Part shown: positions 6,465-26,550 of the stretch, one piece after another | Position numbering within the stretch: position 1 is the stretch's first letter | Layout: each line of letters starts with the position of its first letter | Notes under the pieces: model-generated | Database searches by the model: none | The model's input: only the letters and a program-made list of their open reading frames with translations | What the model was told of the DNA's origin: nothing | Position numbers and translations under genes: made by a program | Assembly (NCBI RefSeq): GCF_028368975.1 | Contig: NZ_JAQNDM010000002.1 | Location: forward strand, 3,186,425-3,218,424 | Reading direction: 5' to 3' | Source of the DNA: Stigmatella ashevillensis | Lineage (GTDB): Bacteria; Myxococcota; Myxococcia; Myxococcales; Myxococcaceae | DNA length: 32,000 nt

Positions 6465-6494
6465 GACAGGGTTCGCGAAGCACTCTGGGTCTTG

Positions 6495-7022: not shown

Positions 7023-7028
7023 GAAGGT

Positions 7029-8435: not shown

Positions 8436-8536
8436 GTGAGGACTCTACCTCTGTCTGGCTGGCTGCCCTGCAAGGGGCCTTCAGAAAAAAGGTAAGGCCT
8501 GCTTGTGGAGGGGGCACAAGCGGTTATCTCGAAGAC

Positions 8537-8737: not shown

Positions 8738-8763
8738 TAAGCGCCCAGCCCGCCGATGGCCGC

Positions 8764-9225: not shown

Positions 9226-9239
9226 CCCACCCCTCCTGC

Positions 9240-9875: not shown

Positions 9876-10561
9876 ATCGCGCCATCCACTTCATTCAAAA
9901 AGCGGGGAGTCCACTGGAGAGTATAGTTACCTCGGCCTTGAAGAACGAAGCTCTTCCCGGAAGGAGCTTTGCTCTGCTGGGAAATTTCTCTGACGCAACC
10001 ACTCGGCGGGTTGATCGTCCAGACAGAGGGATTCACATTGAGAATCTGCTCCCCTGCTACGACATGCTGTGCTCGCGCTGGGGCCAGTGTGAACCTTAAG
10101 TCCTCGCCCAGGATTAAGTAATTGGCCCTGATCTCCGCATCTACAGGGCGAGTGACAGGCCACAAGGCGCCAAGCCGATCCAGAACACTTGGGAAGCTGC
10201 CCACCGTCCGACTGCTCTCCACCATGACCTCTGGGGGCGAATCGTCCGGGCTACGACTCCAGCGAAAGTCCCAAGTCGCCGTCCCCGGCATGTCCTTGTC
10301 CCAAGCCACCAGTGTGGTCATGAAGGGGCGGAACTGCTCCAACCGCTCCGGGAGCGAAAAGAAGGCAGCGCGGCACCTCTGGCCGTCATCAAGGACTTCG
10401 AGATTCAGTTTGGCAAGAACCTCGTGCCAGTGGGCCAGTTCGGACTGGACCTGGAAACGAACGTGAAGTTTCGAGAGTCCCACGCCCCTGGTCCGGAAGA
10501 AGAAGACCTCGTCTGTGTGCGTGGCATCTTCGGGAAAGGACACCTGGGTTTCCGCGCTCAT
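9821..10561 (-). CDS. Hypothetical protein, first gene of a three-gene cassette
   Basis: 246-aa ATG ORF (MSAETQVSFPEDATHTDEVFFFRTRG...) with coding-like composition, overlapping the next gene in the same direction. Confidence 0.6.
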   Translation of the reverse strand: MSAETQVSFPEDATHTDEVFFFRTRGVGLSKLHVRFQVQSELAHWHEVLAKLNLEVLDDGQRCRAAFFSLPERLEQFRPFMTTLVAWDKDMPGTATWDFRWSRSPDDSPPEVMVESSRTVGSFPSVLDRLGALWPVTRPVDAEIRANYLILGEDLRFTLAPARAQHVVAGEQILNVNPSVWTINPPSGCVREISQQSKAPSGKSFVLQGRGNYTLQWTPRFLNEVDGAIWDGLRIFLKPRRSKPKR

Positions 10562-10696
10562 CGGGCAGTGGGTTCCCAGCTTGCCTGTCTGTCTGCCCGG
10601 GCACCCAGCTCCACCATTATCCAGCTCCGGCGCAGGCTCAAGGCTTGAGTCCCAGAATGCCCACTGGGCTCAACGATTTCCGGAACAGGTTTGGCC

Positions 10697-13333
10697 CTAC
10701 TGCTGGCCCATCAGGAAGTCGTTGACGTTGACCTGTCCCTTCTCGGGAGTGGCCTCCTTCGGCTGGGTGCCCTTCTTGAAGAACATGAGTTCCATGTTCT
10801 TGGAGCTGTTGGAGGCAATCTTGCCCGTCTTCTCATCGATGGGCAGGCGCACCAATTCCATGGAAGGCCACGGGTAGAACTCCGGCTGGGGCCGGCCCGC
10901 GAGCGCCTTCTTCATGTAGTCCAGCCAGATGGGCAGCGCCGCGCGGCCACCGGTCTCGTACCGGTTGAGCGGGTGCGGGTTCAGGTCGTACCCCACCCAC
11001 GCCACCGTCACCAGATCCCTCGTGAAGGCGGAGAACCACGCATCGAACGAGTCGTTGGTGGTGCCCGTCTTGCCCGCGGCCGGCTTGCCCAGACGCGAGG
11101 CGGGCCCGCCCGTGCCCTCCTGCACCACGCCGCGCATCAGGTGCGTGATGATGAAGCCCGTCTCCGGCGACATGACCTGCTCGCCGGGCTCGAAGAGGCG
11201 CGCGTAGCCCGCCGCCACCCGGTCCTGCAAGGGGGCCCACGGGTCATCGAACGCGGTGTGGTCCTCCAGCGTGCGCCCGAACCGGTCTTCGATCTTCCGG
11301 ATGAAGTACGTGGGCTTCTTGCGGCCATAGCGGTTGAAGGTCGCGTAGACCTGCGCCAGGTCATACGGATAGACGCACGAGGAGCCGAGCGCCGCCGAGA
11401 AGTCCATGTTCATCGGCGTCGTCAGCCCGAGCAGCCGGGACCACTCGGACATCATCTTGGTCCCCACCGCCCCGAACGTCTTCACCGCCGGGATGTTCAT
11501 GGAGTTGACCAGCGCGGTGCGCAGCACCACGTCGCCCTGGAACTCCTCGGAGAAGTTCTCCGGCTTCCAGGAGACCTTGTTGTCCGGATCATGCTCGACG
11601 ATGGGCGAGTCCACGATGATGGTGGCCTCCGTCCAGTTGAGCTTCTCGATGGCCGCCGCGTACACCAGCGGCTTGAAGGCACTGCCCGGCTGGCGGCACG
11701 CCTGGAAGGCGCGGTTGAACTCGTTGTCGTCGAAGTCGTAGCCGCCCACCATGGCCGTCAGGTACTGCCGGTGGGGATCAATCGAGACGAGCGCGCTCTG
11801 GGGCTCGGGCTGCTGCTCCAGCCGGAAGAGCTTCGGGCCGTTCGGAATCCGCACCGGCTCCGCCGGGACAGCCGAGCCCTCCACGGGCTTCACCGTGTCA
11901 TCGGGAATCGTCTCGGCCAGCTTCTTGTCCCACTGCTCCTTGTCGTCCGTCAGGTCCCGCTTCGTCACGTGGCGGACGACCACCAAGTCCCCCTCGGCGA
12001 CGGCCCGCTTCACCGCGGAGATCATCCCGCCCGGTGCGTAGTAAGACTCCGGATTCACCTTGCGCGCCCAGCGCATGCCCAGCAACGGCAGCCGCGCCTT
12101 GTGCGGCCCCACCTGGATGTCGGCGCCCTTGCCGTCGTCGTCCAGCCGCGTCACCAGCCCCACGTAGAGCCGGTTCAGGACGAGTTCCTCGTTCCCCATG
12201 GCCTTCTTCGCGCGCGCGACGAAGTCGTCCCGCTCCTTGCCGGGGGGCAGGTTCCCGAGCGGGCCCCGCCAGCCCTGGCGCTTGTCCAGCGACAGCAGGC
12301 CTTCGAGCACCGCCTCCTGGGCCGCGCGCTGCCGCTCGCTGTCCATGGTGGTGAAGACCTTCAGCCCCTGCTCCAGGAGCACCGGGTTGCCGTAGCGGTC
12401 GACGATGTCGCGGCGCGCCTGCTCCACGAAGTACGGGGCGAACTCGTGGAACACGTCCTCCACGGGGTACACCTGGACGGGCTCGGCCTTGGCCTCGTCG
12501 TGCTCCGCCTTCGTGATCATCCCCTCATCGAGCATGCGGCGCAGCACGTAGGAGCGGCGGTTCTTGGCCGCCTCGGGCTTGAGGAAGGGCGAGTAGCGGC
12601 TGGGCGCCTGGGGCAGCCCGGCGATGAGGGTCATCTCTCCCAGTGTCAAATCCCGGACGTCCTTGCGGTAGTAGTTCTCCGCGGCGCTCTGCACCCCGTA
12701 GCTGTGGTGCCCCAGGAAGACGTTGTTGAGGTAGAGGTAGAGGATCTCCTCCTTCGTCAGCGCCGCCTCCAGGCGCCGGGCCAGGAGGGCCTCGCGAATC
12801 TTGCGCTTGAGCGTCTTGGCCGTGGCGTCCTTGTAGCCCTCGGCGCCGATCAGCACCGCCTTGGCGGTCTGCTGCGTCAGCGTGGAGCCGCCCTGCATAC
12901 CGCCGCTGCGCAGGCCCAGCTTGGAGGTAATCGTCTTGAAGCCGGCGCGGGCCGTTCCCAGGATGTCCACGCCCATGTGGTCGAAGAAGCTGGAGTCCTC
13001 GCTGGCGATGAACGCCTGCACCAGCCGCTTCGGGATGCGCTCGTAGGGCACCACCTTGCGCCGCTGGTTGTAGAACTCCCCGGCCAGCACCGCATCGTCG
13101 GTGTAGACCTCGGTGACGATGGGCGGCCAGTACTGGTCCACCTTCGGGATGGCGGGCAGCCCGGGGGAGTAGATGTAGTACAGCGCCACCAAGCCCACCG
13201 CGCCCGCGGTGGCGCCCGTGAAGGCCAACCACCCCGCGAGCTTGAGGGGAAAGAGCCACCAGCGGCCCTTTTTCACCCCGTCGAGAACGAGCTTGGAGCG
13301 GCTGCGATCGATGTTCGAGTTGGAAGTGCTCAT
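10697..13333 (-). CDS. mrcA: Penicillin-binding protein 1A (transglycosylase/transpeptidase)
   Basis: N-terminal TM, EDSSFFDHMGVD, GGSTLTQQTAK (GT51 motifs), RQPGSAFKPLVYAAAIE (SxxK region), SMN, AGKTGTTNDSFDAWF (KTG). Start trimmed to ATG 13333. Confidence 0.95.
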   Translation of the reverse strand: MSTSNSNIDRSRSKLVLDGVKKGRWWLFPLKLAGWLAFTGATAGAVGLVALYYIYSPGLPAIPKVDQYWPPIVTEVYTDDAVLAGEFYNQRRKVVPYERIPKRLVQAFIASEDSSFFDHMGVDILGTARAGFKTITSKLGLRSGGMQGGSTLTQQTAKAVLIGAEGYKDATAKTLKRKIREALLARRLEAALTKEEILYLYLNNVFLGHHSYGVQSAAENYYRKDVRDLTLGEMTLIAGLPQAPSRYSPFLKPEAAKNRRSYVLRRMLDEGMITKAEHDEAKAEPVQVYPVEDVFHEFAPYFVEQARRDIVDRYGNPVLLEQGLKVFTTMDSERQRAAQEAVLEGLLSLDKRQGWRGPLGNLPPGKERDDFVARAKKAMGNEELVLNRLYVGLVTRLDDDGKGADIQVGPHKARLPLLGMRWARKVNPESYYAPGGMISAVKRAVAEGDLVVVRHVTKRDLTDDKEQWDKKLAETIPDDTVKPVEGSAVPAEPVRIPNGPKLFRLEQQPEPQSALVSIDPHRQYLTAMVGGYDFDDNEFNRAFQACRQPGSAFKPLVYAAAIEKLNWTEATIIVDSPIVEHDPDNKVSWKPENFSEEFQGDVVLRTALVNSMNIPAVKTFGAVGTKMMSEWSRLLGLTTPMNMDFSAALGSSCVYPYDLAQVYATFNRYGRKKPTYFIRKIEDRFGRTLEDHTAFDDPWAPLQDRVAAGYARLFEPGEQVMSPETGFIITHLMRGVVQEGTGGPASRLGKPAAGKTGTTNDSFDAWFSAFTRDLVTVAWVGYDLNPHPLNRYETGGRAALPIWLDYMKKALAGRPQPEFYPWPSMELVRLPIDEKTGKIASNSSKNMELMFFKKGTQPKEATPEKGQVNVNDFLMGQQ

Positions 13334-14295
13334 GAAGGTTCTAGCGCAGCGCGTTTGAGGGTGTCCTTCAGCTCTGGAGGCAACCTCGCCTCCACCGTCA
13401 CCTTCCCGCCGTGCTGGGGGTGCGGAAATTCGATGCGCTCCGCGTGCAGGAACAAACGCTTCAACCCCCACCGGGCCCGCACATCCCGGTTGAAGGCAAA
13501 GTCACCATACTTCCTGTCTCCAGCCACGGGGTGACCAACAGCGGCCAGATGCCTTCTTATCTGATGGGTGCGTCCTGTCTCGATGGAGCAGGAGAGGAGC
13601 GCCGCCTCGCTCGACTGGCGGATGACCTTCCACCGGGTGAGGGCCTCCTGCATGTTCACCCCCCGGCGGGCCTTGGACTCGGCGGTCTGCTGGTGCTCCG
13701 AGAGGGGAAGTTCGATGACCCCCGAGTCCTTGGGCATCTTGCCCTTGACCAGGGTGATGTAGCGCTTGCGGGCAAGGCCTTCCGTGAACACTTCGGTGAA
13801 GTGCACCATCGCCGGGCGGCGCTTGGCCACGAGGATGACGCCCGAGGTCTCCCGGTCCAGCCGGTGGGCAGGTGAGGCGGTGAAGTCGTTTCTCACCGCC
13901 TTGGGGCCCAGGTAGGCACGCACATAGTCCACCAGGGTTCCCCCGGTAATCCCGCTCCCGGTGTGCACGGCCATGCCGCTGGGCTTGTCCACGGCCATCA
14001 TCCAGTCGTCCTCCAGGAGGATGACCAGCTCGGAGGGGTCCACGGGGGGTGGGGGGGGAGGCAGGCGCTCGCCGCCCTGGGCCGGGCCGAGCAGTTGCTG
14101 CTCATCCCCCCGGATGGCGATGACGTCCCCGGCGACGAGCAGCTGCTCGGGCTGGGCCCGTTTTCCGTTCACCCGGACCTTCTTGACCCGGATCATCTTG
14201 AACAGATGACTGGTGGGCATGTTGGCCAGGCGTTTGCGGAGGTACTTGTCCAGCCGCATCCCCACACTGTCTTCTTCGATTCGGTACTCGATCAT
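13330..14295 (-). CDS. RluA family pseudouridine synthase (S4 domain + catalytic domain)
   Basis: RLDKYLRKRL S4 motif, VDKPSGMAVHTGSG, HRLDRETSGVILVAK catalytic motif, RTHQIRRHLAAVGHPVAGDRKYG. 4-nt ATGA overlap with the PBP1A gene. Confidence 0.95.
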   Translation of the reverse strand: MIEYRIEEDSVGMRLDKYLRKRLANMPTSHLFKMIRVKKVRVNGKRAQPEQLLVAGDVIAIRGDEQQLLGPAQGGERLPPPPPPVDPSELVILLEDDWMMAVDKPSGMAVHTGSGITGGTLVDYVRAYLGPKAVRNDFTASPAHRLDRETSGVILVAKRRPAMVHFTEVFTEGLARKRYITLVKGKMPKDSGVIELPLSEHQQTAESKARRGVNMQEALTRWKVIRQSSEAALLSCSIETGRTHQIRRHLAAVGHPVAGDRKYGDFAFNRDVRARWGLKRLFLHAERIEFPHPQHGGKVTVEARLPPELKDTLKRAALEPS

Positions 14296-14340
14296 TTGTT
14301 CTTGGCGGCCGGACCAGAGCACACGAATAATGACCGGTCC

Positions 14341-15801
14341 ATGCCGAAGGCTCCCAGTATCGAGAAGCTCCTCCAGAGCGGTTCAGCGGAGTGGAACAAG
14401 CTCCGCAAGTCCGGACAGGTCTCCACCGACCACACGGGCGCTACCTTCACGCAGCTGTTCTCCGCCAATGCGGACCTCTCGGGCCTAGAGCTCGTGGGCT
14501 CCGAATGGGAGCGCTGCGACCTGTCCAAGATGAACTTCCGCGACGCGGACCTGTCCAACGCCTACTTCCATGGCGGCCGGCTCCAGGACTGTGACTTCCG
14601 CGGGGCCAACCTCGAGGGCGCCACCTTCGAGAAGTTGAAGTTGCTGCGCTGTGACTTCACGGGCGCCAAGGGGCTGGACGACCTGGAAATGGAGGATGTG
14701 GACATGGACCGGGTGCAGGGCCTGGACGGCGAGGAAGCCCCGCCCCCGCCCCCGCCCCCCGCCCAGGGCATCACCGCCTTCACCCGCGAGCAGCGGGAGA
14801 AGGCCATGGGGGCCGCCGCGGCCGCCGTGGCAGGCCCCGCCGCGGAGGAGCTGCCCCCCTTCAAGCCCCAGGATCCTCCGGGCTCACTGCTCTTCCGGGC
14901 CTTGAAGCGGCTCCCGGCGCCGCCCCCCTGGGTGCTGGACGTCCCCGGCCTGCGCCCGTTGCTCCCGCAGCGCCTGCCCCCCGGCTCCTCGCTGGAGGCG
15001 ATGTACCGCGAGGCGGTGAAGACGCGGCTGGAGAACAAGAAGCCCGGGGCGGACCCGGGCGCGGTGGAGCGGGCGCAGAAGGCGCTGCGGCTGGGCGGGA
15101 AGGACTCGGCCGTGGCGGCCATGTACCTGCGCGAGGTGGGCGTGCTCCCGCTGTCGCGCTTCTCCGCGGCCAAGGTGCTCAAGGATGCGCTGCGCGCCGA
15201 GGTGGATGTGGATGATCTGACGGGCTCCATCGACCCGCGGGTGGCCGGGGCGCTCTTGGAGCTGCGGCTGACGCACGAGGTGGTGGAGCACCTGCAAGAG
15301 GCCCGGCGCCGCCTGGCCGCCACGCAGCTCTACACCGCGCTGCTGGAGGCGGGCTTCACCCCGGAGAACAACTGGGACGAAGCGCTGGAGTCGGCCGAGC
15401 CCGCCCTGGAGCTGGCACAACTGGCCACGGGCGATGACCGCAACGCGCTCTTCGAGGCCTTCCAGGTGTTCGCCGCCCTGCCGGACGAGGCCCGGCTGCG
15501 GCGGTTGGCGTACCTGGCCGAGACGGTGACGAACCTGGAGCTGGTGAGCCGACTGCCCGAGGGCATGGAGCCGCAGTGGCTCACCGGGCCCGAGACGCGC
15601 GAGTGCCACGACCGGGAGATGACGTACGTTCAGGCGCTCCGGGCACAGGACATTCCCACCAAGGTGCCCGCCCTGGCCCAGGCAGAGCTCGGCGTTCCCG
15701 AGGGTCAGGTGCCCGAGGACAGCGACGACGACCTGTTCGTCCACCTGCGCTGTGACGTGTGCGGCAAGGAGAAGCTCATCGTTCAATCCCGGATCGACTG
15801 A
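14341..15801 (+). CDS. Pentapeptide-repeat-containing protein with long alpha-helical C-terminal region
   Basis: MPKAPSIEKLLQSGSAEWNKLRKS...; ANADLSGLELVGSEWERCDLSKMNFRDADLSNAYFHGGRLQDCDFRGANLEGATF A(D/N)LXX repeats, Pro-rich linker PPPPPPP. Start trimmed from the 612-aa ORF. Confidence 0.85.
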   Translation: MPKAPSIEKLLQSGSAEWNKLRKSGQVSTDHTGATFTQLFSANADLSGLELVGSEWERCDLSKMNFRDADLSNAYFHGGRLQDCDFRGANLEGATFEKLKLLRCDFTGAKGLDDLEMEDVDMDRVQGLDGEEAPPPPPPPAQGITAFTREQREKAMGAAAAAVAGPAAEELPPFKPQDPPGSLLFRALKRLPAPPPWVLDVPGLRPLLPQRLPPGSSLEAMYREAVKTRLENKKPGADPGAVERAQKALRLGGKDSAVAAMYLREVGVLPLSRFSAAKVLKDALRAEVDVDDLTGSIDPRVAGALLELRLTHEVVEHLQEARRRLAATQLYTALLEAGFTPENNWDEALESAEPALELAQLATGDDRNALFEAFQVFAALPDEARLRRLAYLAETVTNLELVSRLPEGMEPQWLTGPETRECHDREMTYVQALRAQDIPTKVPALAQAELGVPEGQVPEDSDDDLFVHLRCDVCGKEKLIVQSRID

Positions 15802-15817
15802 GCCGGGCATCCTTCCC

Positions 15818-15839
15818 CCCTCCCGTGCAGGGGGGAGGG
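15818..15839. terminator. Inverted repeat between convergent genes, possible bidirectional terminator
   Basis: CCCTCCC (15818-15824) / GGGAGGG (15833-15839) stem with 8-nt loop in the 55-bp gap between convergent CDSs; no clear T-tract. Confidence 0.35.
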
Positions 15840-15856
15840 CCCTCTGCGTGGCGGAC

Positions 15857-16429
15857 TCAAGGCAAGGAGTACGTCACGGCGGGGGGCAGCAGAATCCTCA
15901 CCGGGTCTCCTGGCCGGATGACGCCCGGGCGATCCACCCACCCCACCAGCCCTCGCCGCTGGTGCGCGGCCTTCACGAAGCGGCTCGCCAGGCCTTCCCG
16001 GTCCGGATACCAGGGCTGCAGCGCCCGCCCCGCCTTCCGGCACGGCGTGTTCTCCCCTTCCATCGTCAGGATGACCTCTTCGGGGAAGAACAGGCGCGTC
16101 CCGGGAGGCAGGTGCGTCAGCCGGGGCACCCCCGCCAGCTCCAGGTTCGCGCCCAGCCAGGCCGCCTCCACCCGGGGCACCTCCAGCGCCGCCGCGATGA
16201 GCGCCAGTTCCTCCGTGGACACGAGGGAGACCTGGCGCGTGTTGCGCACGAGCGCGCCCTTGGGACACCAGGGCGTGCGCACATCCGACGTGCGTGTCAG
16301 CCCCGCGTGCCGGTCTCCCACGAAACCTTCCAGGGACACCTTCCCCTCGGGCACCTCGCGCGCAGGGTGATTCTTTGGCTCGGAGCCGATGAGGACGCGA
16401 ACCGTGTGCCCGGTGAGGTGCGTGCGCAT
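15857..16429 (-). CDS. MOSC domain-containing protein
   Basis: EGKVSLEGFVGDRHAGLTRTSDVRTPWCPKGALVRNTRQVSLVS, LGANLELAG, GENTPCRKAGRALQP: MOSC fold motifs including the conserved Cys. Start trimmed to ATG 16429. Confidence 0.85.
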   Translation of the reverse strand: MRTHLTGHTVRVLIGSEPKNHPAREVPEGKVSLEGFVGDRHAGLTRTSDVRTPWCPKGALVRNTRQVSLVSTEELALIAAALEVPRVEAAWLGANLELAGVPRLTHLPPGTRLFFPEEVILTMEGENTPCRKAGRALQPWYPDREGLASRFVKAAHQRRGLVGWVDRPGVIRPGDPVRILLPPAVTYSLP

Positions 16430-16437
16430 GAAGGGCC

Positions 16438-17412
16438 TCAGAAGAGCGAGAGCTGCTGGGGCTTGCCCAGCGTGCGCGCGTCGATGCCTTCCTCCCGCAG
16501 CAGCCGCGCCAGCTCCTCCGCGAAGCCGTGGTGCGTGATGACCTCGCGAGCCCCCGTGGCCTTCACATAGCCCACCAGCGAGGGGCAGTCCGCATGGTCC
16601 GAGAGGGGAAAGGCCACCTGCGCGCCATAGCGATGCGCGGCGCCTGGATCCAACGCCCACCCCGTGAGCACCGCGGTGGCGCGCGGCCACACGGGCGCCA
16701 GGGCCCCCGTGCGCGCCTGATGCGGTGGGAAGAAGAGCACCTCTCCCGGCTGCACCGTCCCCTCGAAGCGCCGCAGCGGCTCGATGCGCACGCCCAGCTC
16801 CGCGTAGAGCTGTGTCACCTCGAAGATGGAGGGGTGCGCCACCAGCGGGAAGCCGCGTCCAGAGAGGTACTTCATCGCCTCCTGGCTCTTGCCCAGGGGA
16901 TAGCCCAGCAACACGGGCACCGCCCCCCGTTCGAGCTGCTGGCGCACCCACGCCTCCACCCTGCCCAGCACTTCGTCCTTCGGCGGAAAGCGGTACCGCG
17001 GATGGCCGAACGTGGCCTCGATGACGAGCGTGTCGCACTCGGCCACCTGCACCGGCTCCGCCGTGAGCGAGGGCGTGACGTTCAGATCCCCCGTATAGAC
17101 GATGCGACGCCCATCCCCCCGGATGACGCGGAGCTGGGCACTGCCCAGGATGTGGCCCGCCGAGAGCAACTCCAACGTCAGGGGACCCAGCTCGAACGGC
17201 TGGTTGTAGGCCACCGCCACCGGGTCCTTCACCCGGCCCAGCCGGTGCGTCATGAAGCGCAGGGTGGCGGCCGTGGCGATGGTCCGCTCATGGCGCGCGA
17301 TGTGGTCCGAGTGCCCGTGGCTGACGAAGGACAGCGGCGTCTTGCGCATCGCATCCAGCGCCAGCGGGGTACCCGTCAGGTGAAGTCCGGTTCGCCTCAA
17401 CTCGACGCTCAT
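16438..17412 (-). CDS. Metallo-beta-lactamase-fold exonuclease-like protein (COG1236/YSH1-type)
   Basis: LSFVSHGHSDHIARH (HxHxDH), SAGHILGSAQLRV, RIVYTGDLN, LVIEATFGHPRYRFP, FPLSDHADCPSLVGYV, HHGFAEEL: beta-CASP-like motifs. Confidence 0.88.
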   Translation of the reverse strand: MSVELRRTGLHLTGTPLALDAMRKTPLSFVSHGHSDHIARHERTIATAATLRFMTHRLGRVKDPVAVAYNQPFELGPLTLELLSAGHILGSAQLRVIRGDGRRIVYTGDLNVTPSLTAEPVQVAECDTLVIEATFGHPRYRFPPKDEVLGRVEAWVRQQLERGAVPVLLGYPLGKSQEAMKYLSGRGFPLVAHPSIFEVTQLYAELGVRIEPLRRFEGTVQPGEVLFFPPHQARTGALAPVWPRATAVLTGWALDPGAAHRYGAQVAFPLSDHADCPSLVGYVKATGAREVITHHGFAEELARLLREEGIDARTLGKPQQLSLF

Positions 17413-17502
17413 GGGGAAGCCTGGATATAGCGCGCCTGGGACCGCAGGGGGGGACATGCTCCACGACGCGCCCGCCCGCCCGTCCGCCCTGCCTGCGAAA
17501 CC

Positions 17503-18420
17503 TCAGGCCCCCGCCAGGGGCCGCTCGCGCCAGCGGTCCCACAAGGCCGAGCCCACCTCCGACACCAGCACGCCCAGCACGATGAGGCTGCCCCCGCTCC
17601 ACTCCCGGGGGCCCAGCGTCTCGTATCCCAGCGACACCGAGAAGAGCGCGGCGAACACCGGCTCCAGCGCATAGATGAGGGCCGCGCGCACCGCGCCCGT
17701 GCGGGCCTGGGCCCACGTCTGCACGCTGATCGCGACGGCGCTGCCGAGGACGCCACAGAAGAACACGGCCCCCACGAAAGCCCCTGTCCACGCCACCCGC
17801 GTCTCCACGAAGGGCAGGCACGCCGCCGAGAGCAGCGCCACGCCCCAGAGCTGCACGGCGACGAGCGCGCTGGCCCCTTCCTTCGGCGCGAACCGCCCCG
17901 TCAGGACAATGTGGAGGGCATAGGACACCGAGCCCGCCAGCGTGAGCAGGTCTCCCGAGGAGATCCCCCCGGAGGCCTCCTCGCCCGCGTGCGTGAGAAA
18001 GAAGAGCCCCACGGTCGAGAGCACCACCCCCACCAGCGAGGGGACGCGAGGAACCCGGCGAAAGAGCACCAAGGTCAGCAGCGGAACGAAGAGGACACAC
18101 AGGCCCGTGATGAAGGCCGAGCGCGCGGGCGAGGTGTGCGTCAGCCCCACCGTCTGAAACACGTACCCGCTGAAGAGGAAGAGGGACAGCAGGCCCCCTC
18201 GCCGCAGGTAATCCCCGGAGAGCATCCGCCGCCCCGCCACGGCGCTCAGCACCACGGCCCCCAGGCCAAAGCGCAGCACGAGGAACGAGAAGGGATCTCC
18301 ATGGCCCAACGCGTCCTTCACCACCACGAAGGTGGTGCCCCAAAACACGGTGAGCAGCGCCAGGGCGCCGTCCGCCTGGAGATGGGCGCGACGCTCCCGC
18401 GGTGAAGTCACTTCGGCCAT
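17503..18420 (-). CDS. EamA/DMT family transporter
   Basis: Ten hydrophobic segments; GALALLTVFWGTTFVVVKDAL, GSVSYALHIVLTGRFAP, AALIYALEPVFAALFSV. Start trimmed to ATG 18420. Confidence 0.9.
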   Translation of the reverse strand: MAEVTSPRERRAHLQADGALALLTVFWGTTFVVVKDALGHGDPFSFLVLRFGLGAVVLSAVAGRRMLSGDYLRRGGLLSLFLFSGYVFQTVGLTHTSPARSAFITGLCVLFVPLLTLVLFRRVPRVPSLVGVVLSTVGLFFLTHAGEEASGGISSGDLLTLAGSVSYALHIVLTGRFAPKEGASALVAVQLWGVALLSAACLPFVETRVAWTGAFVGAVFFCGVLGSAVAISVQTWAQARTGAVRAALIYALEPVFAALFSVSLGYETLGPREWSGGSLIVLGVLVSEVGSALWDRWRERPLAGA

Positions 18421-18454
18421 GACGGAGGTCCAGCTAGCACACTTCCCTCGCCCA

Positions 18455-19420
18455 TCAATCCAATGCGCGCTCCAACACCACCAAGGGCTTGCTGCCCCCC
18501 GAGGCATCCCACTCGGCGTTGACCCGCCGGATAAGCTCTGGGGGCGAGAAGCGAAACCCCACCCTCCGGAACGTCCTCAGGGAGGCGGCGTTGTCCTCAT
18601 CGACATCCGCGAAGATGCATTCCTCGCCCTGCTTTCGCGCCGCTTCCACCAGACAGGTAAGGAGCTGGTGGGCCACCCCCATCCTCCGGGCTCTCGGCGC
18701 CACCACCAACGAGCGGACCCAGAGCCCGTCCAGCGCCAGCCCTTCCTCGCGGTAGCTGTCCAGGTAGGCGAACCCACACAGGCGGCCCGCCGAGTCGAAG
18801 GCTCCCGCCGAAGCCCCCACCGCCCCTCCCTCCCGCGCCCACCGGCCCAGCAGTTGGCGGCGCAGGAACACCGAGGAGACCAGGAGCCGTTCCCCGGCGA
18901 ACACCAGGAGCGCGTCCAGATCCTCGGCCCGAAGCAGGCGCACCTCCAGCCGCCCCAACCACCGCGCCCGCACGGGGCGGGACCACCCCGAGAAGGTGAA
19001 GTCCCGCAGCCGCCGAGCCGCGCCCCTCGCCACGGGACGGGCCCACAACGCGGAAGCCAACCGCTGCCCCAGAAAGAGCGAAGGCCGCGTCACGCGGGGC
19101 AAGGGCAAAATCCACCACCCCCGGCGCAGGGCCGTCACACGCCCGAGCGGAACTCCCTCGGGATCTCCGTGGCCCAGCAAGGAGGCCGTCACCAAGGGGC
19201 CCGTGGAAACCACCACGTGCGCGATGAGCCGACGCCCCACCCTCACCAGCGCCACATCGCCCCGGGACAGCTCCTCCGGCCCACAGCGAAGCACCTGGAT
19301 CGAATCTCCGCTGCGCAGCAAGGGATACAGGCTCCGGCCCGCCCCTCGCAGCCAGAGCCGACGGCCCAGAGACGTGGACTCGACGAAGGCCGCGAGATCA
19401 ACCGGGTGTGTGCCAACCAT
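18455..19420 (-). CDS. S24/S26 peptidase-like domain fused to a GNAT N-acetyltransferase
   Basis: N-term: GRSLYPLLRSGDSIQVLRCGPEELSRGDVALVRVGRRLIAHVVV (GxSxxPxxxxGD...); C-term: LWVRSLVVAPRARRMGVAHQLLTCLVEAARKQG...ADVDEDNAASLRTFRRVGF (GNAT acetyl-CoA motif). Confidence 0.8.
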   Translation of the reverse strand: MVGTHPVDLAAFVESTSLGRRLWLRGAGRSLYPLLRSGDSIQVLRCGPEELSRGDVALVRVGRRLIAHVVVSTGPLVTASLLGHGDPEGVPLGRVTALRRGWWILPLPRVTRPSLFLGQRLASALWARPVARGAARRLRDFTFSGWSRPVRARWLGRLEVRLLRAEDLDALLVFAGERLLVSSVFLRRQLLGRWAREGGAVGASAGAFDSAGRLCGFAYLDSYREEGLALDGLWVRSLVVAPRARRMGVAHQLLTCLVEAARKQGEECIFADVDEDNAASLRTFRRVGFRFSPPELIRRVNAEWDASGGSKPLVVLERALD

Positions 19421-20184: not shown

Positions 20185-20322
20185 TCAGCAGGCCCCCGTC
20201 TCTGGATCGATGATGCAGCTGGGCGTGAAGAGGTCCGGAACGAGAATCCGCTCCGAGCGCACCTGGGGAGGGGCGTAAGCCTTCTTCTTCTCCGCCTTCA
20301 CCGGCTGCACCGTGGTTGCCAT
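20185..20322 (-). CDS. 45-aa putative RiPP precursor peptide
   Basis: MATTVQPVKAEKKKAYAPPQVRSERILVPDLFTPSCIIDPETGAC; Lys-rich leader, YxPPxV motif, C-terminal Cys36 and Cys45; Shine-Dalgarno AAGGAG 3 nt upstream of ATG; located between PqqD/giant lipoprotein and HprK-like genes. Confidence 0.75.
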   Translation of the reverse strand: MATTVQPVKAEKKKAYAPPQVRSERILVPDLFTPSCIIDPETGAC

Positions 20323-20325
20323 GGT

Positions 20326-20331
20326 CTCCTT
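20326..20331 (-). promoter_or_regulatory. Shine-Dalgarno of the precursor peptide, overlapping the stop codon of the giant lipoprotein gene
   Basis: Minus strand reads TAT TAC TAA GGAG ACC ATG: stop TAA at 20332-20330 shares two bases with AAGGAG. Confidence 0.65.
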
Positions 20332-23300
20332 AGTAATACACCACGACCCGGGCTGGATTCGACTGACTATCACCCACGGCCAGGTCCATTTTTCCATCCC
20401 CGTTGAAGTCCAGAATGGTCAAACTGATTCCAAGCGACGTCGTGGATGCCAGCTTGGACTGCCAGAAGCCATTCTCCTGGGCAAGGTCGAACTCGGCCCC
20501 CGGAATGCCCTGGTTGTAGAAGACGGCCGCGGCGTTCTGCCCGACGACGTTCTGGCCCACGGCGATGTCGACGCGTCCATCTCCGTTCAAGTCCCCCAGG
20601 GCCAGGGCGTTGCCGAAACGGCCGCCACCGACGATCTCCACCGGCGCCGTGGGGAAGCCCGAAGGGCCTCCATCCCGGAACACGAAGACCTTGCTCTGGG
20701 TGGCCGAGGAGGCCACCAGATCCAGCCCCGCGCCCCCCACCAGGTTCACCCCGCCAAAGGCCTCGGTGCCAAAGCCGTTCTGCGAGTTGCCGGTCGTATC
20801 GGGCCCCTGGTGAATCACCTGGAGCGCGTCCGTCGTGGACACGTTCCGGCCCAGGGCGTGAACCGCGGCGCCTGAATAGACATAGAGGTTGTTGACCCGC
20901 TCATGGGAGGCCGGGACGGTGAAATCCGCGACGCCATCGCCCGTGATGTCCCCCAGGCGCACGTAGCCACGGGAGCGTCCGAAGAAGACCATCCCCGTGG
21001 GGGCCGTGAAGACCTTGTCGGACTTGCTCGTGGGCACGACGCAGGCGGAGGTGGCGTTGCAGCCTGTTCCCAAGGCCCGCCAAGCCTCCGGCGTGCGGCT
21101 GTAGAAGAGGTAGACCTTTCCGGGCGTCTCGCCGTGCGAGCTGAGCAGCAGCTCATGAAGCCCGTCCCCGTTGATGTCCTGGATCATCTTCACCGAGCCG
21201 CCCAGCGTGGCCCCGGTGATGGCCGTGTCATGCCGGAACTCGATGGGGGCCGTCGTGTCCAGCACCTGGCCCTTCCGGCCAAAGTAGAGGAACGCCCGGC
21301 CGGAGTTGGACGTCCAGCCACGAGAGCCCACCAGCAGGTCCGCCACCGGCTCCGAGGTGGCGTTGCCGACATCACCGACATCGAAGTCACTCCCATAGGC
21401 TTGAGCGCCCGTCTCCGGGACCGTCAATTCCTGCCGAACCGGCGGGGAGCCCACCGGATCGCTGCTGCCGTAGTACACGTACGCCGAGCCCGGATTGCCC
21501 AGGACGCCTGTCACGATCAGGTCTTCCCTGCCATCCGCGTTCAGATCTCCCCGGGCGGTAATATAGGTGGCGTAGCTGTTGCTCGGGACGCCTGGGTTCG
21601 TCACCGTCACCTGCCGCCAGAAGTTGTCGATCTGTGGCTGCACCGCGAAGGGCGCGTAGTTGCCAATCTCGTCCCGGGGACGGAGCTGGATGGAGTAACG
21701 GGCCAGGGGCGGCAACGTCAGCGTGTAGGCCGTGGACGTGGCAGGCAGCAGCGCTCCCGTTTCCTGCTTCACCTTCCCGCCGAAGAAGGTCGCCTCGTTC
21801 TCGATGCCGTTCAGAAGCTGGGCGTTGACCGTCCACCGCAGGTCATAGCCCACCCCCATGCCGGACAGCCCGTCATCTCCACTCGCCGTCCACGACACCT
21901 GCACCTTGGCCGCCCGCTCCTGGCCGGGCACCAACGCCATCGTCACGGTGGGCGCCGCGGGAGGCACCACGTCCACGGTGGCCGTGACGGTGTGGCGCGC
22001 CGTGTTCCCGGACGCATCCACCACGCGCACCTCGAGCGTGCCATCCGTGTTGTGCGGCAACGTCACGGGAAGCTCCAGGGTCTCCGGCGAGGCGGAGATC
22101 GTGAACTCCGAGGAGACGGAAGCTCCCTTGTAGAGCGCCTGCACCGTGCTGCCCACGCCCTGCGTCACGGTGAGTGTGAACACCGCATTGGCATCCCCGC
22201 CCGGGGACATGTCCACCACGCGGTCCGGTGCAGGAGATGGGAAGAGATAGGCGTTGGTGCTCGCGACGAAGAAGAGCGCCGTGGGGGAGGGAGAGATGGA
22301 GGTGATGAGCGGGGGCGTGATGTCCACCGTCACGTCCACGAAGTCGACAGCCCTCAGCCCCGAGATGTTGAACACCTCCACGGCCAGGCGTGTCTGATCG
22401 CCGTCCGCGAGCGTCACATCGAAGAAGAACGCCCCCGTCGCCGGATCCGCGGTGACGGCATCCTCCGGTGTGGTCGAGCCTCCCTTGTAGAGAATCACCT
22501 CGCGGCCATTGCATGCCGGCGTGATACCGGCCAGGCGGTACTGCAACCCCGCCGCCGAGGGGTCCAGATCGTCCTGGGCAAGCAACGTGGCCACCGGCTC
22601 ACTCGGCGTGGTGAGCGTGATGGCACAGCCAGGGATTTTCACATCGACGTTGGCCTTGGAATCACTGCCCGCGTTTCCAGCGGTATCACGGGCCACGGCC
22701 GAGACGGTCTGCACGCCCACGGGGAAGTTGAGCGTGCCTTGCGCGACTCCCGAGACGACCGGCAGGGTCCCCACCACCGCGGCGGGAGCGCTCCCCACCT
22801 GCGAGAGGATGCTCACCGTGCTCACGTCCCCTCCTGCCACATTGACCTGAACGGGGATGTCCGTGTTGTCGTAGACAGCGCTCGCCGCGGGGGCCACCAG
22901 CGTCACGGTGGGGGCTTCCAGATCCACCGTCAGGGTCCGGACCACCGAGGTCTCGTTGCCCGAGGTGTCCACGGCAACCACCGAGAGCGTGTACTCCGTC
23001 TTGCCTGTGCCCGGCACGGTGAACTCATGCGTGGCCACCAGCTCGGAAGGCGTCAGCGACACCGGATTTCCCCCCGGGGAGAGCAACATCCGCACACCGC
23101 CCGCGCCCACGTCCGCGCTCGTGTTGATGGCCGCCCGGAGCTGGAAGCCGACGGCCGTCGAGCCGTCATCCGCGAGGCCGAACTCGGTGCGCGTGGGCGC
23201 GCTCACCACCAACGAAGGCGGGACTCGGTCCAGGCGGAAGGCGAAGAAGGCCGCCGTGTTGAGCGGATAGAAGGGGGTCGGATTGAGCACCCGGTTCTGA

Positions 23301-26134
23301 TTGCCCGCAGCGTCCGTCACGGTCACGACGAGCGCGTAGTCCGCCTCGATACCGGTGGGCATCGCATCGAGGGAGACGGTGGCCAGGCCACCGCCGGCAT
23401 TGCCCTGGCCATAGACGATGCCGGGATTGCTGGCGTTGCGAACCTGGACCGGCCGCCCATCTTCCAGACCGTCAATGGTCACCCGGAGCTGCACGGAGCC
23501 TGTGGGCCACTCGACGGCATTCAGCCGCCGATCCCCGTTGACGTCTCCCACCAGTTCCACGGCACGCACCACCGGCTCGGTGCTGTCCACGGTGATGTTC
23601 ACCGACTGAGACACGGAGATGGCCCCGTCGTCGAGAACGGCGCGCAGGGCGTAGCGCCCATCGGGGTAGGTGAAATCCGGGGTGAAGGCCGGCACGTTGG
23701 CGGCCAGGGTGTACCAGCCCGAGCCATCCCGGCAGGGCGCGGCATCCTGGCTCGGCGCCACGCTCGCGCAGATGTCCACGACGGCGTTCGCCGAACGTCC
23801 ATTCGCGGCGTACTTCAGGGGCGCCTGGATGCCCGACTCCTCGGGCGTGACGTCGGAGTTCACGACGTAGACCGGGGCGGGGGAAGCCGCGGGAATCTCC
23901 AGGGCGATGTTGCCCGGCTGGGTGTCCACCAGGAGCAGCACCGTGGCGCAGGCCACCGTGCCTCCGGGGCCGATGAGCTCGGCGCGCAGCACGTTGGAGC
24001 CCTCTTCCAGCTCCACGGTGTTGAACCGCTTCGTCCGCTCGTTCGCGGCGACATCCACCACGGCGATCTCGGTGGCCCCGCGCAGCAATCGCAGCTTGCT
24101 GGCCGCCTGGGTGTCCACGCTCAGGGTGACCGAGACACTCAACCCGCCGTTGGGCAGCACGATGCCATCCGTGGCCCCCAGGTACCGGCCAATCGCGGGG
24201 GTCTCGAAGGCCAGCGAACTCGGAGAGAAGGCCAGGGTCAGCGCCCGGACTTGCTCGCTGGTGTTGCCCGCCAGATCCGTGGAGGCGACTTGCAACAGAC
24301 ATTCGCCGCTGAGCGGCACGGAGACGTCCCTCAACACGAGCGCCCCGTGGTCATCGGCCTGTCCCGCCACCCCCGCGGCCAGGGCGCACCCCGTGACGAG
24401 CACCGAGGCGTACGGCTCGGTCTCCACCTCGAGGGCCACTTGCATGCCCGGAGCCAGAGACGTGTCGTTGAGCCCGAAGCCCAGAACAGTCTCTCCGGCG
24501 GGCACACCGCGCACCTGGAACGCCAGCACCGGCGGCGTGGAGTCCAGCTCCAGGGAGAGCAGCTGACTCGTGGCGCCCCCTGGACAGGAGGCCAGGAGCC
24601 GGTACGCGCCATCGCTCTCCAAGAGGAGCGAAACCAGCGCCGACCCCGAAGATGCGACGGCGGTGCTCCGTCCCCGCTCATTGCCATTCACATCCAAGGC
24701 CACCACGGTGACCGGCCCGGCCCCCGACTCCACGCGGACCGAGGTGTTCATGCCCGTGGTGGGAATCAGGGTGCCATTGTCCGGCGAGATGATGCGGCAG
24801 ACGGGCTGGCCCGTGGTGACCGTGACGGTCTCCGCCAGGCACTGCTCCAAACCCGCTGCATTGCGGACACAGGCCTGAACGGCATTGGCGCCCCCCGCCA
24901 GTTGCACGGTGAAGGCCGCCTCGCGCCCACCGTTCGTCACCGCCCGCTGCGGCTGGGCGAACTTGCCGGTGACGCTGGTGAAGAGCGTCACCTGGGTGCC
25001 AGGAGGCAGCGAGTCCACCTGGACGGTCACCGGTACCTGCACGCCGTTGTCGAGCCGGCCGTCCACCGGATCCTCCGAGAGGCTCTTCGGCACCACCAAT
25101 TTGAGGGTTGGCGTCGTGCTGGCCACCGTGACGGGAACCTGCCGGGTGGAGACATTGCCCCCCGCATCGGAGACTTTCAGCGTGAAGAGGTAATCCCCAT
25201 CCACCGGCACCGTGACGGCGGGGAACGTCACGCCTCCGGAAATGACGGGGGCGGACAGATCCGGCGCGCCAACCCGGGACAGGGTGGCCAACACACCGGG
25301 CTCGGTACACCCCACGGTGGCCTCCACCCGGAACGTCGTGGACGCCACCGCCGCCACTGGCCAGGCCAGTTCCACGCGCGGAGACACCGTGTCCAACGTG
25401 ATGTGGCGCCGGCCGGACGTCACCTCGTCATCGCCATTGCGGACCACCGCGTAGCACTGGGCTTCCTGGGACTCGCATGCGAACTGGGACAGCGTCACCT
25501 CGACCTGGGTGGCCCCATTGCCCGCCACGGTGAAGTCCGTGGGAGGCACCCCACACGCCTGCTCGCAATAGATCGTGCCCTTTCTTCCCGACAGGCCCAC
25601 GGCATTCACGCTGAAGCGCAGCTGGTAGCCGGGCGAATCCGGGTTCGCGTCATCCGCCTCGAGCAGCACCTCGCCTTCGGGGGGCTGCGTCAGATCCACC
25701 GATGGCGGCTCCGAGGTCACCGTGACGCTGATGCGCTGGGTGGCCGTGCGCCGCGAGCTGGCCTCCTCCACCGTCACCTGCAGCACGTTGGTGCGCGACT
25801 GCAACAGCGCCGCCGGGAAGCGGGCCGTGTCCCCCTCGATGAGGGCCTTGGGCCCCTCCGTCCATCCCTGCTCGGACGGCGTGCGCACCTCCAGCTTCGC
25901 GCTGGCCAGCTTCACCGCCCGGCCCGAGGTGTCCCGGGCCCGCACCACCACCTCGTGCTGGAAGCCGTCGGTGGCCGTGTCCTCATCATCGGAGAGCACC
26001 AGCCGCTGCCCGTCCACGGGCTTCTCGAACCCCACCTCCAGCTCCGACTCCACCGGTGGCTCGCCGCAGCTGCATCCGGACGCACTCCACAGCGCGAGCC
26101 CCATCAACAGCCACTGCCACATCGATCGGCGCAT
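20330..26134 (-). CDS. Giant surface lipoprotein: N-terminal/central Ig-like modules plus C-terminal FG-GAP/VCBS beta-propeller
   Basis: MRRSMWQWLLMGLALWSASGC lipobox signal with GGGAG SD; recurrent 'DTTPP...VTVSVT' Ig-like modules; C-term blades DLNADGREDLIV, ADLLVGSRG, DINGDGLHELLL, DITGDGVADFTV, GLDLVASS, DLNGDGRVDIAV, DFNGDGKMDLAV. ORF track start (GTG 26203) gives GTGA overlap with the upstream gene; ATG 26134 gives a proper signal peptide. Confidence 0.88.
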   Translation of the reverse strand: MRRSMWQWLLMGLALWSASGCSCGEPPVESELEVGFEKPVDGQRLVLSDDEDTATDGFQHEVVVRARDTSGRAVKLASAKLEVRTPSEQGWTEGPKALIEGDTARFPAALLQSRTNVLQVTVEEASSRRTATQRISVTVTSEPPSVDLTQPPEGEVLLEADDANPDSPGYQLRFSVNAVGLSGRKGTIYCEQACGVPPTDFTVAGNGATQVEVTLSQFACESQEAQCYAVVRNGDDEVTSGRRHITLDTVSPRVELAWPVAAVASTTFRVEATVGCTEPGVLATLSRVGAPDLSAPVISGGVTFPAVTVPVDGDYLFTLKVSDAGGNVSTRQVPVTVASTTPTLKLVVPKSLSEDPVDGRLDNGVQVPVTVQVDSLPPGTQVTLFTSVTGKFAQPQRAVTNGGREAAFTVQLAGGANAVQACVRNAAGLEQCLAETVTVTTGQPVCRIISPDNGTLIPTTGMNTSVRVESGAGPVTVVALDVNGNERGRSTAVASSGSALVSLLLESDGAYRLLASCPGGATSQLLSLELDSTPPVLAFQVRGVPAGETVLGFGLNDTSLAPGMQVALEVETEPYASVLVTGCALAAGVAGQADDHGALVLRDVSVPLSGECLLQVASTDLAGNTSEQVRALTLAFSPSSLAFETPAIGRYLGATDGIVLPNGGLSVSVTLSVDTQAASKLRLLRGATEIAVVDVAANERTKRFNTVELEEGSNVLRAELIGPGGTVACATVLLLVDTQPGNIALEIPAASPAPVYVVNSDVTPEESGIQAPLKYAANGRSANAVVDICASVAPSQDAAPCRDGSGWYTLAANVPAFTPDFTYPDGRYALRAVLDDGAISVSQSVNITVDSTEPVVRAVELVGDVNGDRRLNAVEWPTGSVQLRVTIDGLEDGRPVQVRNASNPGIVYGQGNAGGGLATVSLDAMPTGIEADYALVVTVTDAAGNQNRVLNPTPFYPLNTAAFFAFRLDRVPPSLVVSAPTRTEFGLADDGSTAVGFQLRAAINTSADVGAGGVRMLLSPGGNPVSLTPSELVATHEFTVPGTGKTEYTLSVVAVDTSGNETSVVRTLTVDLEAPTVTLVAPAASAVYDNTDIPVQVNVAGGDVSTVSILSQVGSAPAAVVGTLPVVSGVAQGTLNFPVGVQTVSAVARDTAGNAGSDSKANVDVKIPGCAITLTTPSEPVATLLAQDDLDPSAAGLQYRLAGITPACNGREVILYKGGSTTPEDAVTADPATGAFFFDVTLADGDQTRLAVEVFNISGLRAVDFVDVTVDITPPLITSISPSPTALFFVASTNAYLFPSPAPDRVVDMSPGGDANAVFTLTVTQGVGSTVQALYKGASVSSEFTISASPETLELPVTLPHNTDGTLEVRVVDASGNTARHTVTATVDVVPPAAPTVTMALVPGQERAAKVQVSWTASGDDGLSGMGVGYDLRWTVNAQLLNGIENEATFFGGKVKQETGALLPATSTAYTLTLPPLARYSIQLRPRDEIGNYAPFAVQPQIDNFWRQVTVTNPGVPSNSYATYITARGDLNADGREDLIVTGVLGNPGSAYVYYGSSDPVGSPPVRQELTVPETGAQAYGSDFDVGDVGNATSEPVADLLVGSRGWTSNSGRAFLYFGRKGQVLDTTAPIEFRHDTAITGATLGGSVKMIQDINGDGLHELLLSSHGETPGKVYLFYSRTPEAWRALGTGCNATSACVVPTSKSDKVFTAPTGMVFFGRSRGYVRLGDITGDGVADFTVPASHERVNNLYVYSGAAVHALGRNVSTTDALQVIHQGPDTTGNSQNGFGTEAFGGVNLVGGAGLDLVASSATQSKVFVFRDGGPSGFPTAPVEIVGGGRFGNALALGDLNGDGRVDIAVGQNVVGQNAAAVFYNQGIPGAEFDLAQENGFWQSKLASTTSLGISLTILDFNGDGKMDLAVGDSQSNPARVVVYY

Positions 26135-26199
26135 TCGTCTCCCACCCTCTCCAGCGGCAGGCCGTGGGCCTGCGGCTCGCGACATCAGCGCAAGGGACC

Positions 26200-26550
26200 T
26201 CACGGCCCCAGCACCAGCACCTTCTTCGCCACGAGGAGCCGGAGGAAGGCGACCGTGTCCGCTTCACACGCCTCCGGTTCCACCTCGAATTCGTCACACA
26301 GCACCGCCACGATGTCCGCCACCGTCCGGCGGCCATCCACCAACTCCACGATGCGCTCGGCCACCTCGGACACCTGACCCCGGGCGTCCTCGAACAGGTG
26401 CAGGTGCTCATCGGGCCCCGCAGCCATCAGCCGCCCACCCACGCGCTGCACCCCCGTCTCCGGATGCAGCCGAGGCACGGCGCGCAGCACCTCCCGGCCC
26501 GCCTCCGCGGGAGCTTTCGTTCCATCTTTGTTGGAAACGAATCCAGCCAC
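26200..26550 (-). CDS. PqqD family protein (RiPP recognition element)
   Basis: RLHPETGVQRVGGRLMAAGPDEHLHLFEDARGQVSEVAERIVELVDGRRTVADIVAVLCDEFEVEPEACEADTVAFLRLLVAKKVLVLG fits the PqqD pattern (lvdG.rtv.div..l..ef...v...d...fl..l...g.l); GTG start with GGGAG upstream. Confidence 0.82.
   Translation of the reverse strand: MAGFVSNKDGTKAPAEAGREVLRAVPRLHPETGVQRVGGRLMAAGPDEHLHLFEDARGQVSEVAERIVELVDGRRTVADIVAVLCDEFEVEPEACEADTVAFLRLLVAKKVLVLGP

Follow-up and report, generated by a model that had tools for sequence, protein, structure and literature searches.

The PQQ and mycofactocin pathways (PqqA/PqqD and MftA/MftB) combine a short precursor and a highly conserved core with a dedicated PqqD-family chaperone, and PqqD proteins are peptide chaperones. 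The SynChlorMet (SCM) cassette is a bioinformatic definition only, laid down in NCBIfam/TIGRFAMs (ScmC, TIGR04249; ScmD, TIGR04248; ScmE/F, TIGR04250/04251); to our knowledge, its precursor has never been identified. In lasso systems of the paeninodin type, an HprK-fold kinase acts on the linear precursor, and HPr-kinase homologs phosphorylate RiPP precursors (PMC8498205). QhpC, the gamma subunit of QHNDH, is a small cysteine-containing peptide whose leader is cleaved off; once modified in the cytoplasm, it joins large exported periplasmic subunits, with which it shares an operon (PMC7876137). The literature on ScmC/SynChlorMet, on HPr kinase with radical SAM enzymes, and on FG-GAP proteins with PqqD yielded nothing that describes the system considered here.

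The locus lies in a window of 32,000 nucleotides (67.6% GC) of Stigmatella ashevillensis and centers on a minus-strand ORF of 45 codons (ATG 20322-20320, TGA 20187-20185), which reads MATTVQPVKAEKKKAYAPPQVRSERILVPDLFTPSCIIDPETGAC in translation (Table 1). Retranslation of the window DNA reproduced its coordinates, sequence and motif exactly as the initial annotation had given them. The description of the peptide as unannotated did not hold: GenBank contains a 100% identical hypothetical protein of 45 aa with no function assigned (POL68_15655, Stigmatella sp. ncwal1). As reported earlier, mechanical ORF calling yields a 70-aa form that starts with MEKWTWPW and runs upstream of the peptide ATG; this extension is not kept in relatives, and on one metagenome contig (L016) a stop codon is found two codons 5' of the ATG. 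The peptide start had also been credited with an AAGGAG of its own, which is present in the window, only 3 nt from the ATG, but is not conserved among the orthologs. In every ortholog the ATG is located 5-12 nt past the stop codon of the giant lipoprotein gene (7 nt in the window); given this spacing and the non-conserved hexamer, termination-reinitiation coupling and a free-standing ribosome-binding site are equally likely. Readthrough or frameshifting from the giant gene was rejected because this stop-to-ATG spacing varies and the frames differ among orthologs. No signal peptide was found in the 45-aa peptide.

Table 1. Features of the window and of related loci; locations refer to the window unless another locus is named.
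Feature	Location	Strand	Details
Chemoreceptor	1-2187	-	
Histone-deacetylase-like protein	1947-3131	+	
GAF histidine kinase	within 2803-5646	+	
Response regulator	3142-3549	-	
Ser/Thr protein kinase	7029-8435	-	
Mechanical ORF with MOSC domain, 393 aa	15857-17038	-	overlaps MBL exonuclease gene
MBL exonuclease	16438-17457	-	
EamA/DMT transporter	17503-18507	-	PF00892, E 1e-31; neighbor, outside the gain/loss unit
S24/S26-like (~14-126) plus GNAT (~157-295) fusion, 321 aa	18455-19420	-	putative leader peptidase plus N-acyltransferase
ScmC-like HprK/PEPCK-fold P-loop protein, 255 aa	19398-20165	-	putative ATP-dependent modifying enzyme
Precursor-like peptide CDS, 45 aa	20185-20322	-	stop codon included; direct translation, homologs, dN/dS
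Putative core, residues 33-45	20188-20226	-	TPSCIIDPETGAC; S35, C36, C45 invariant
Putative leader, residues 1-32	20227-20322	-	KKKAYAPPQVRSERILVPDLF conserved behind a variable N-terminus
Putative PqqD-binding motif	~20251-20289	-	within KKKAYAPPQVRSERILVPDLF, residues ~12-32
AAGGAG, Shine-Dalgarno-like hexamer	20326-20331	-	direct reading; overlaps TAA of giant gene (20332-20330)
Giant lipoprotein, 1957-aa ORF	20330-26203	-	Ig-like arrays, C-terminal FG-GAP propeller
PqqD-family protein, 116 aa, putative RRE	26200-26550	-	PF05402, E 5e-13
L001 (Hyalangium versicolor), Na/Ca-exchanger gene	11947-13089		between GNAT fusion and EamA
L004, FG-GAP lipoprotein, 1600 aa	12689-17734		adjoins cassette, directly before peptide
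L004, small ORF	17570-17734		..RRDYQAPRVDQSGDFERLVLACVKASVPC..; ends ..PGRS
L007, small ORF	11310-11471		..RRLPYVPPKIESEMIQDLSAGGCGKC..; ends ..QSTS
L008, small ORF	12250-12426		..GKKPYTKPACVSEEIFETSALACGK..C..; ends ..PRLS
L008, PQQ_2 beta-propeller/CBM96 protein, 767 aa	12564-14867		adjoins cassette
L009, small ORF	12302-12463		..PKKPYTKPSVVSEPIYETLALACGK..C..; ends ..PRRS
L010, C25 peptidase, 1180 aa	9504-13046		adjoins cassette
L010, small ORF			..KKQAYQKPELRKV...C...C...C..
L024 (Pyxidicoccus sp. MSG2), SpvB/TcdB/Rhs-type toxin gene	13217-18984		a few kb downstream; site lacks the unit

A search of 5.8 billion proteins recovered 29 homologs of 45-50 aa from Stigmatella, Hyalangium, Myxococcaceae and soil metagenomes; the genera that carry them are Stigmatella, Hyalangium, Pyxidicoccus and Archangium. 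M1, P7, K13, Y16, P19, V21-E24, L27-F32, S35, C36 and C45 are invariant in this alignment, the VRSE and LVPDLF blocks are retained across all 29 sequences, and P18 is conserved in at least 90% of them. The residues that the initial annotation had singled out for such a comparison (Y16, P18/P19, S35, C36 and C45) are thus conserved, far beyond chance. Purifying selection, likewise proposed as a check, operates at the protein level: Nei-Gojobori dN/dS on peptide DNA from nine loci gave pairwise values of 0.03-0.5 among close orthologs (pS 0.70 and pN 0.06 for the window vs. Hyalangium versicolor), and 0.56-0.92 for pairs that involve the Archangium peptide with its divergent core. At least two synonymous codons are used at 16 of the 20 invariant residues, which indicates selection on the protein, and indels among the orthologs are in-frame only. 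Short ORFs are plentiful in GC-rich DNA of this kind, but a chance ORF would be extremely improbable in the face of these dN/dS values, in-frame indels and synonymous changes at invariant residues, and this explanation was ruled out. The 45-residue ORF is a genuine, strongly conserved small gene.

The peptide family is narrow, since an exhaustive HMMER search with the 45-mer against 1.84 billion cluster representatives returned two family clusters only. The same search returned a metagenomic protein of 632 aa (P0031), a plant-like secreted repeat protein that matched the 45-mer (E 1.8e-8) via six repeats whose units resemble SELRSQHVLLPSLQKGGPVTSPGSNPGHN; it was rejected as a relative, and its likeness to VRSERILVPDL is judged, from the sequences, to be compositional or convergent, without homology. 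The metagenome locus L022 was discarded as a chance match in the wrong frame. Neither the window peptide nor the peptides of the distant cassettes described below matched a family in Pfam or NCBIfam.

The initial annotation had proposed a leader-core architecture for the peptide, and the comparison across genera supports this. A block of the form K/R-K/R-x-Y-x-P-P-x-V-R-S-E...LF is constant from Stigmatella to Archangium, and the cysteine-bearing tail diverges. The Archangium peptide (MTTRETRKQRRPYRPPIVRSEKILVANLFASKDPGQGCEPNCDFAPPDGEL) retains the leader block RRPYRPPIVRSEKILVANLF through LF, whereas its core has been replaced by ASKDPGQGCEPNCDFAPPDGEL, in which the tail differs and two cysteines occur again; the same head is found on small ORFs of the distant cassettes. 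The core limits suggested earlier were only partly right: C36 and C45 are invariant, but the residues LF fall within the conserved block, so that the core more likely begins at T33 or later. The residue before the first cysteine is small (A, G or S) in six of seven lineages, and peptides of the window family end in Cys (or Cys-Leu/Ile), without a C-terminal Ser. Taken at the level of sequence, the shared head and the cysteine-containing tails fit a leader/core RiPP precursor that is read by a PqqD-type recognition element. One point counts against this reading: for a RiPP of antibiotic type, the core varies unusually little from genus to genus.

All on the minus strand, the genes follow each other in the order PqqD, giant lipoprotein, peptide, P-loop (ScmC-like) protein, S24/S26-like-GNAT fusion, EamA and MBL exonuclease. 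The initial annotation had connected the peptide neither with the giant gene nor with the S24-like/GNAT fusion. PqqD, the giant FG-GAP lipoprotein, the peptide and the ScmC-like protein constitute a four-gene unit that is present or absent as a whole, according to a presence/absence matrix from tblastn over 25 loci and from gene tables. The complete unit occurs in Hyalangium (L001), Archangium (L002) and Pyxidicoccus xibeiensis (L003), and on three long metagenome contigs (L016, L020, and L021). In M. xanthus, C. exiguus, Myxococcus sp. RHSTA-1-4, Pyxidicoccus sp. MSG2 and M. landrumensis, the identical syntenic site, flanked by Coa1 and the GNAT gene, has none of the four genes. In the tblastn matrix, a PqqD protein accompanies the peptide at every peptide-bearing locus and is missing where the peptide is missing, and the giant gene is gained and lost with the peptide. 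The GNAT fusion, EamA and MBL genes are in place whether the unit is there or not. In every ortholog, 12-25 nt separate the peptide stop from the start of the P-loop gene (19 nt in the window). In the window, the P-loop gene overlaps the GNAT-fusion gene by 23 nt, and no terminator-like site was found between the giant, peptide, P-loop and GNAT genes. The putative RiPP-type pathway is restricted to a few myxobacterial genera.

Positions 1-10600 of the window are rich in signaling genes, none of which showed a connection with the peptide unit. The MOSC gene measures ~195-205 aa in relatives, so that the 393-aa mechanical ORF in the window is an artifact of an upstream start. The Na/Ca-exchanger gene of Hyalangium versicolor is an extra gene that is lacking in the window and at the other loci. 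A known defense system was rejected on the basis of PADLOC, which returned zero matches for all five proteins submitted.

The PqqD-family protein of the window scores below the NCBIfam cut-offs for PqqD, lasso-PqqD and ScmD models; its best match is the PQQ PqqD model with 35.7 bits (cut-off 46), and the ScmD model reaches 20.5 bits (cut-off 100). The orthologs of the ScmC-like protein carry the ScmC domain PF27840, and the window protein matches TIGR04352/04355/04249 weakly, with 27.6 and 23.7 bits for HprK-related kinases A and B (cut-off 200) and 16.7 bits for ScmC (cut-off 125). Its AF2 model (pLDDT 95) was matched by Foldseek to PEP carboxykinase (E 2e-6) and HprK/P (E 4e-4); a direct sequence search of the PDB returned P-loop noise only. 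Across 59 homologs H103, G118, G123-K-S-T126 (forming G118-x-x-x-x-GKST126) and P157 are invariant, and D142 is present in at least 90%; we take H103, the P-loop and D142 to be the His, P-loop and Asp of HprK/P. Judged by model and alignment, the predicted protein has a PEP-carboxykinase-like fold with intact catalytic motifs.

The inventory of this locus invites comparison with tailored lasso clusters, which share the Y-x-x-P leader motif, PqqD, and HPr-kinase-like and GNAT genes; the stretch S35-C-I-I-D-P-E41 of the peptide would even permit a seven-residue ring. However, Pfam scans of the window candidate ORFs and of the orthologous loci found neither the asparagine-synthetase-like lasso cyclase nor the transglutaminase-like B2 peptidase, and a lasso-peptide precursor is accordingly given next to no weight. 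The leader motif that the initial annotation had likened to the YxxP motif of lasso systems recurs beside ScmC-like/radical SAM cassettes (with PqqD in four of five), but the lasso system itself is not present. No lanthipeptide enzyme was found among the scanned window ORFs, no radical SAM gene was found in the scanned ORFs of the 32-kb window or within 8-10 kb at six orthologous loci, and no peptide exporter belongs to the four-gene unit; lasso, lanthipeptide and sactipeptide readings were rejected, as the class-defining enzymes are absent from the window.

More remote homologs of the P-loop protein (PF27840 in precomputed tables) occur in five distant cassettes from unrelated lineages (L004, L007-L010), all of which combine ScmC-like and radical SAM genes; PqqD is present in four of them. 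The order is ScmC-like protein, PqqD, radical SAM/SPASM and small ORF in L008 and L009; ScmC-like protein, unknown protein, small ORF and radical SAM in L007; PqqD, radical SAM, small ORF and HprK-like protein in L010 (Anaerolineales); and ScmC-like protein, PqqD, radical SAM, giant FG-GAP lipoprotein and small ORF in L004. The radical SAM genes of L007-L009 are SPASM-tagged; L010 was obtained from a contig search with the generic pattern GPSGAGKST, which at least six loci matched. The five small ORFs have a common head, [KR][KR]..Y..P.[VIL], followed by cysteine-containing tails, and every one of these peptides contains at least two cysteines. When a profile of the window family was run against 6699 six-frame segments from all loci, the peptides of L009, L008, L010 and L007 were among the few non-orthologous matches; they align at identical profile positions, with individually non-significant E values of 0.14-1.2. 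The peptides of L004, L007, L008 and L009 end in Ser, the position that is phosphorylated by HPr-kinase homologs in lasso systems; the window family has Cys there.

These cassettes raise the alternative that a radical SAM/SPASM enzyme from elsewhere in the genome matures the window peptide to a thioether-crosslinked product (sacti- or ranthipeptide-like), with PqqD and the ScmC-like protein as accessories. The pairing of radical SAM genes with same-head cysteine peptides in all five distant cassettes, and the invariance of both cysteines in the window family, are consistent with such maturation in trans; nevertheless it appears quite unlikely, since no radical SAM gene was found among the scanned window ORFs or within 8-10 kb at the six orthologous loci, and the four genes that come and go together do not include one.

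The giant lipoprotein matches FG-GAP, FG-GAP_3 and Big_13 in Pfam, and its true start is likely an ATG near 26134. The window protein has a lipobox (..SASGC), as do six of the seven other giant proteins examined; the exception is L021. Cys is conserved in 20 columns of the giant proteins, one of them the lipobox Cys; since the mature protein would retain 19, an odd number, one conserved Cys may be unpaired. Large secreted proteins also adjoin two other distant cassettes: a beta-propeller protein in L008 and a C25 peptidase in L010. The position of the peptide behind a giant FG-GAP gene in two different layouts (the window unit and L004), together with these large neighbors, suggests that the peptide product acts with a large exported protein, which in the window would be the giant FG-GAP lipoprotein.

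Alternatively, the peptide might remain unmodified and serve the giant lipoprotein as an assembly factor, as a regulator or as a stoichiometric partner; its PqqD and ScmC-like neighbors would then be unrelated to the peptide. The short distance between the giant stop and the peptide ATG (5-12 nt in every ortholog), the L004 peptide directly behind a giant FG-GAP lipoprotein, and the highly conserved core are all compatible with this explanation, which nonetheless seems improbable on three counts: the leader motif tracks ScmC-like and radical SAM genes in L007, L009 and L010, which lack the giant gene (PqqD in two of these three), and this disfavors an unmodified accessory; a signal peptide is lacking in the small protein, although the giant one is exported as a lipoprotein; and PqqD proteins are chaperones of peptides. 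A modified peptide that acts, in the manner of the QHNDH gamma subunit, as partner or cofactor of the giant lipoprotein, produced by a minimal pathway with PqqD, HprK/PEPCK-fold kinase and S24-like/GNAT protein as its only enzymes and no radical SAM, is a version that we regard as rather unlikely.

The fusion protein encoded downstream has a GNAT half (PF00583, E 3e-13) and an N-terminal domain that aligns with a Pfam-S24 protein beside cassette L009 (hhalign probability 93%, E 3e-7); the Pfam S24 model itself matches this domain below threshold (E 0.13). A Foldseek search with the whole model matched only the GNAT half, with N-alpha-acetyltransferases such as RimI and Ard1 as best matches, a likeness that is generic to the GNAT fold; a PDB profile search likewise matched the GNAT half alone. 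The motifs GRS[LM]xP (GRSLYP in the window) and AHVV contain a putative Ser/His dyad. All 49 scorable sequences of the Stigmatella/Hyalangium/GXIMD/Archangium clades retain it, and every locus examined there has the four-gene unit; in the Myxococcus/Corallococcus/Pyxidicoccus clade, where the unit is missing at five of six loci examined, only 14 of 33 sequences do. Only in the latter clade has the dyad been lost, several times (Ser to C/D/G, His to Q/R; homologs P0165-P0205); as a control, the acetyl-CoA motif RxxGxA of the GNAT half is retained in both clade groups. That the dyad never varies in clades with the unit and is frequently lost in the clade that mostly lacks it suggests that the S24/S26-like domain of the fusion is a putative leader peptidase. 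In Myxococcus and Corallococcus the S24-GNAT gene remains although the unit is absent, and EamA likewise remains at unit-less loci, so that neither is a dedicated partner. S24, S26 and signal peptidase all go unmentioned in a 2023 review of leader proteases. At the unit-less site of Pyxidicoccus sp. MSG2, a toxin gene of the SpvB/TcdB/Rhs type follows a few kb downstream.

Among the explanations considered, we favor, with moderate confidence, that the peptide is the precursor of an RRE-dependent RiPP-type pathway in which PqqD binds the leader, the ScmC-like protein modifies the peptide and the S24/S26-like domain cleaves it. The steps that we infer for this pathway, from PqqD binding and modification chemistry through cleavage site, acetylation and disulfide formation to the destination of the product, would proceed as follows. 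The stand-alone PqqD protein would bind leader residues ~12-32, the K-K-x-Y-x-P-P-x-V-R-S-E stretch, and would present the bound peptide to the adjacent ScmC-like HprK/PEPCK-fold enzyme. This enzyme would use ATP to modify the peptide, most probably by O-phosphorylating a conserved Ser, either S35 (beside C36) or S23 (in VRSE); by analogy with the HPr-kinase homologs of known systems, the chemistry is probably phosphorylation. The S24/S26-like domain would then remove the leader, plausibly just before C36; the small residue that precedes the first cysteine in most lineages fits cleavage at this point, which would leave CIIDPETGAC, with Cys at both ends. The fused GNAT domain may acylate the new N-terminus, and the two invariant cysteines could close a loop, possibly as a disulfide pair. 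Two considerations weigh against the kinase step: HPr kinases of lasso type act on a C-terminal Ser, whereas this peptide ends in Cys; and as radical SAM enzymes, presumably the main modifiers in the related cassettes, are missing here, the kinase-fold protein may play just an accessory role.

If the precursor reading is correct, the peptide would represent a precursor family for ScmC-type cassettes, which so far are defined by bioinformatics only, and the locus would offer a tractable minimal version of such a cassette, with PqqD and a kinase-fold enzyme and no radical SAM. An S24/S26-type protease fused to GNAT would join the known RiPP leader peptidases, and, in bacteria that are social and active on surfaces, a modified peptide would be genetically linked with an FG-GAP lipoprotein of 2000 residues. 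Should the minimal pathway apply, it would constitute a new RiPP class with the kinase-fold protein as class-defining enzyme. The presence/absence polymorphism of the unit among close myxobacteria provides natural hosts and controls; Myxococcus xanthus is without the unit and has kept the peptidase-GNAT gene.

Compared by sequence with the systems described at the outset, the locus resembles RRE-dependent RiPP pathways yet fails the tests that define lasso and SynChlorMet systems. With paeninodin-type lasso systems it shares a small precursor with a Y-x-x-P leader, a stand-alone PqqD (B1-type) and an HprK-fold protein, and, as in albusnodin clusters, a GNAT is present at the peptide locus. In contrast to paeninodin-type systems, it has no lasso cyclase and no B2 peptidase, the peptide C-terminus is Cys and not a kinase-targeted Ser, and the kinase-fold protein is ScmC-like (PF27840) and no equivalog of HprK-related kinases A or B. 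The SynChlorMet cassette is matched by the ScmC-like HprK-fold protein and the PqqD-family protein of the unit, and by distant relatives (L004, L007-L010) that add radical SAM genes; the window differs in ScmC and ScmD scores far below the equivalog cut-offs, in the lack of radical SAM/SPASM maturases (ScmE, ScmF), and in the giant lipoprotein gene embedded in its unit. The short precursor with conserved core and the PqqD-family protein recall PQQ and mycofactocin, but PqqE/MftC radical SAM enzymes and the other pathway genes are absent, and the core sequence is unrelated. QhpC shows no detectable sequence similarity to the peptide. Its maturation also differs: the radical SAM enzyme QhpD crosslinks it, a subtilisin-like protease cleaves it and an ABC transporter exports it, and the window has none of the three; by analogy, QHNDH may still serve as a precedent for a RiPP-like peptide that partners with a big periplasmic protein.
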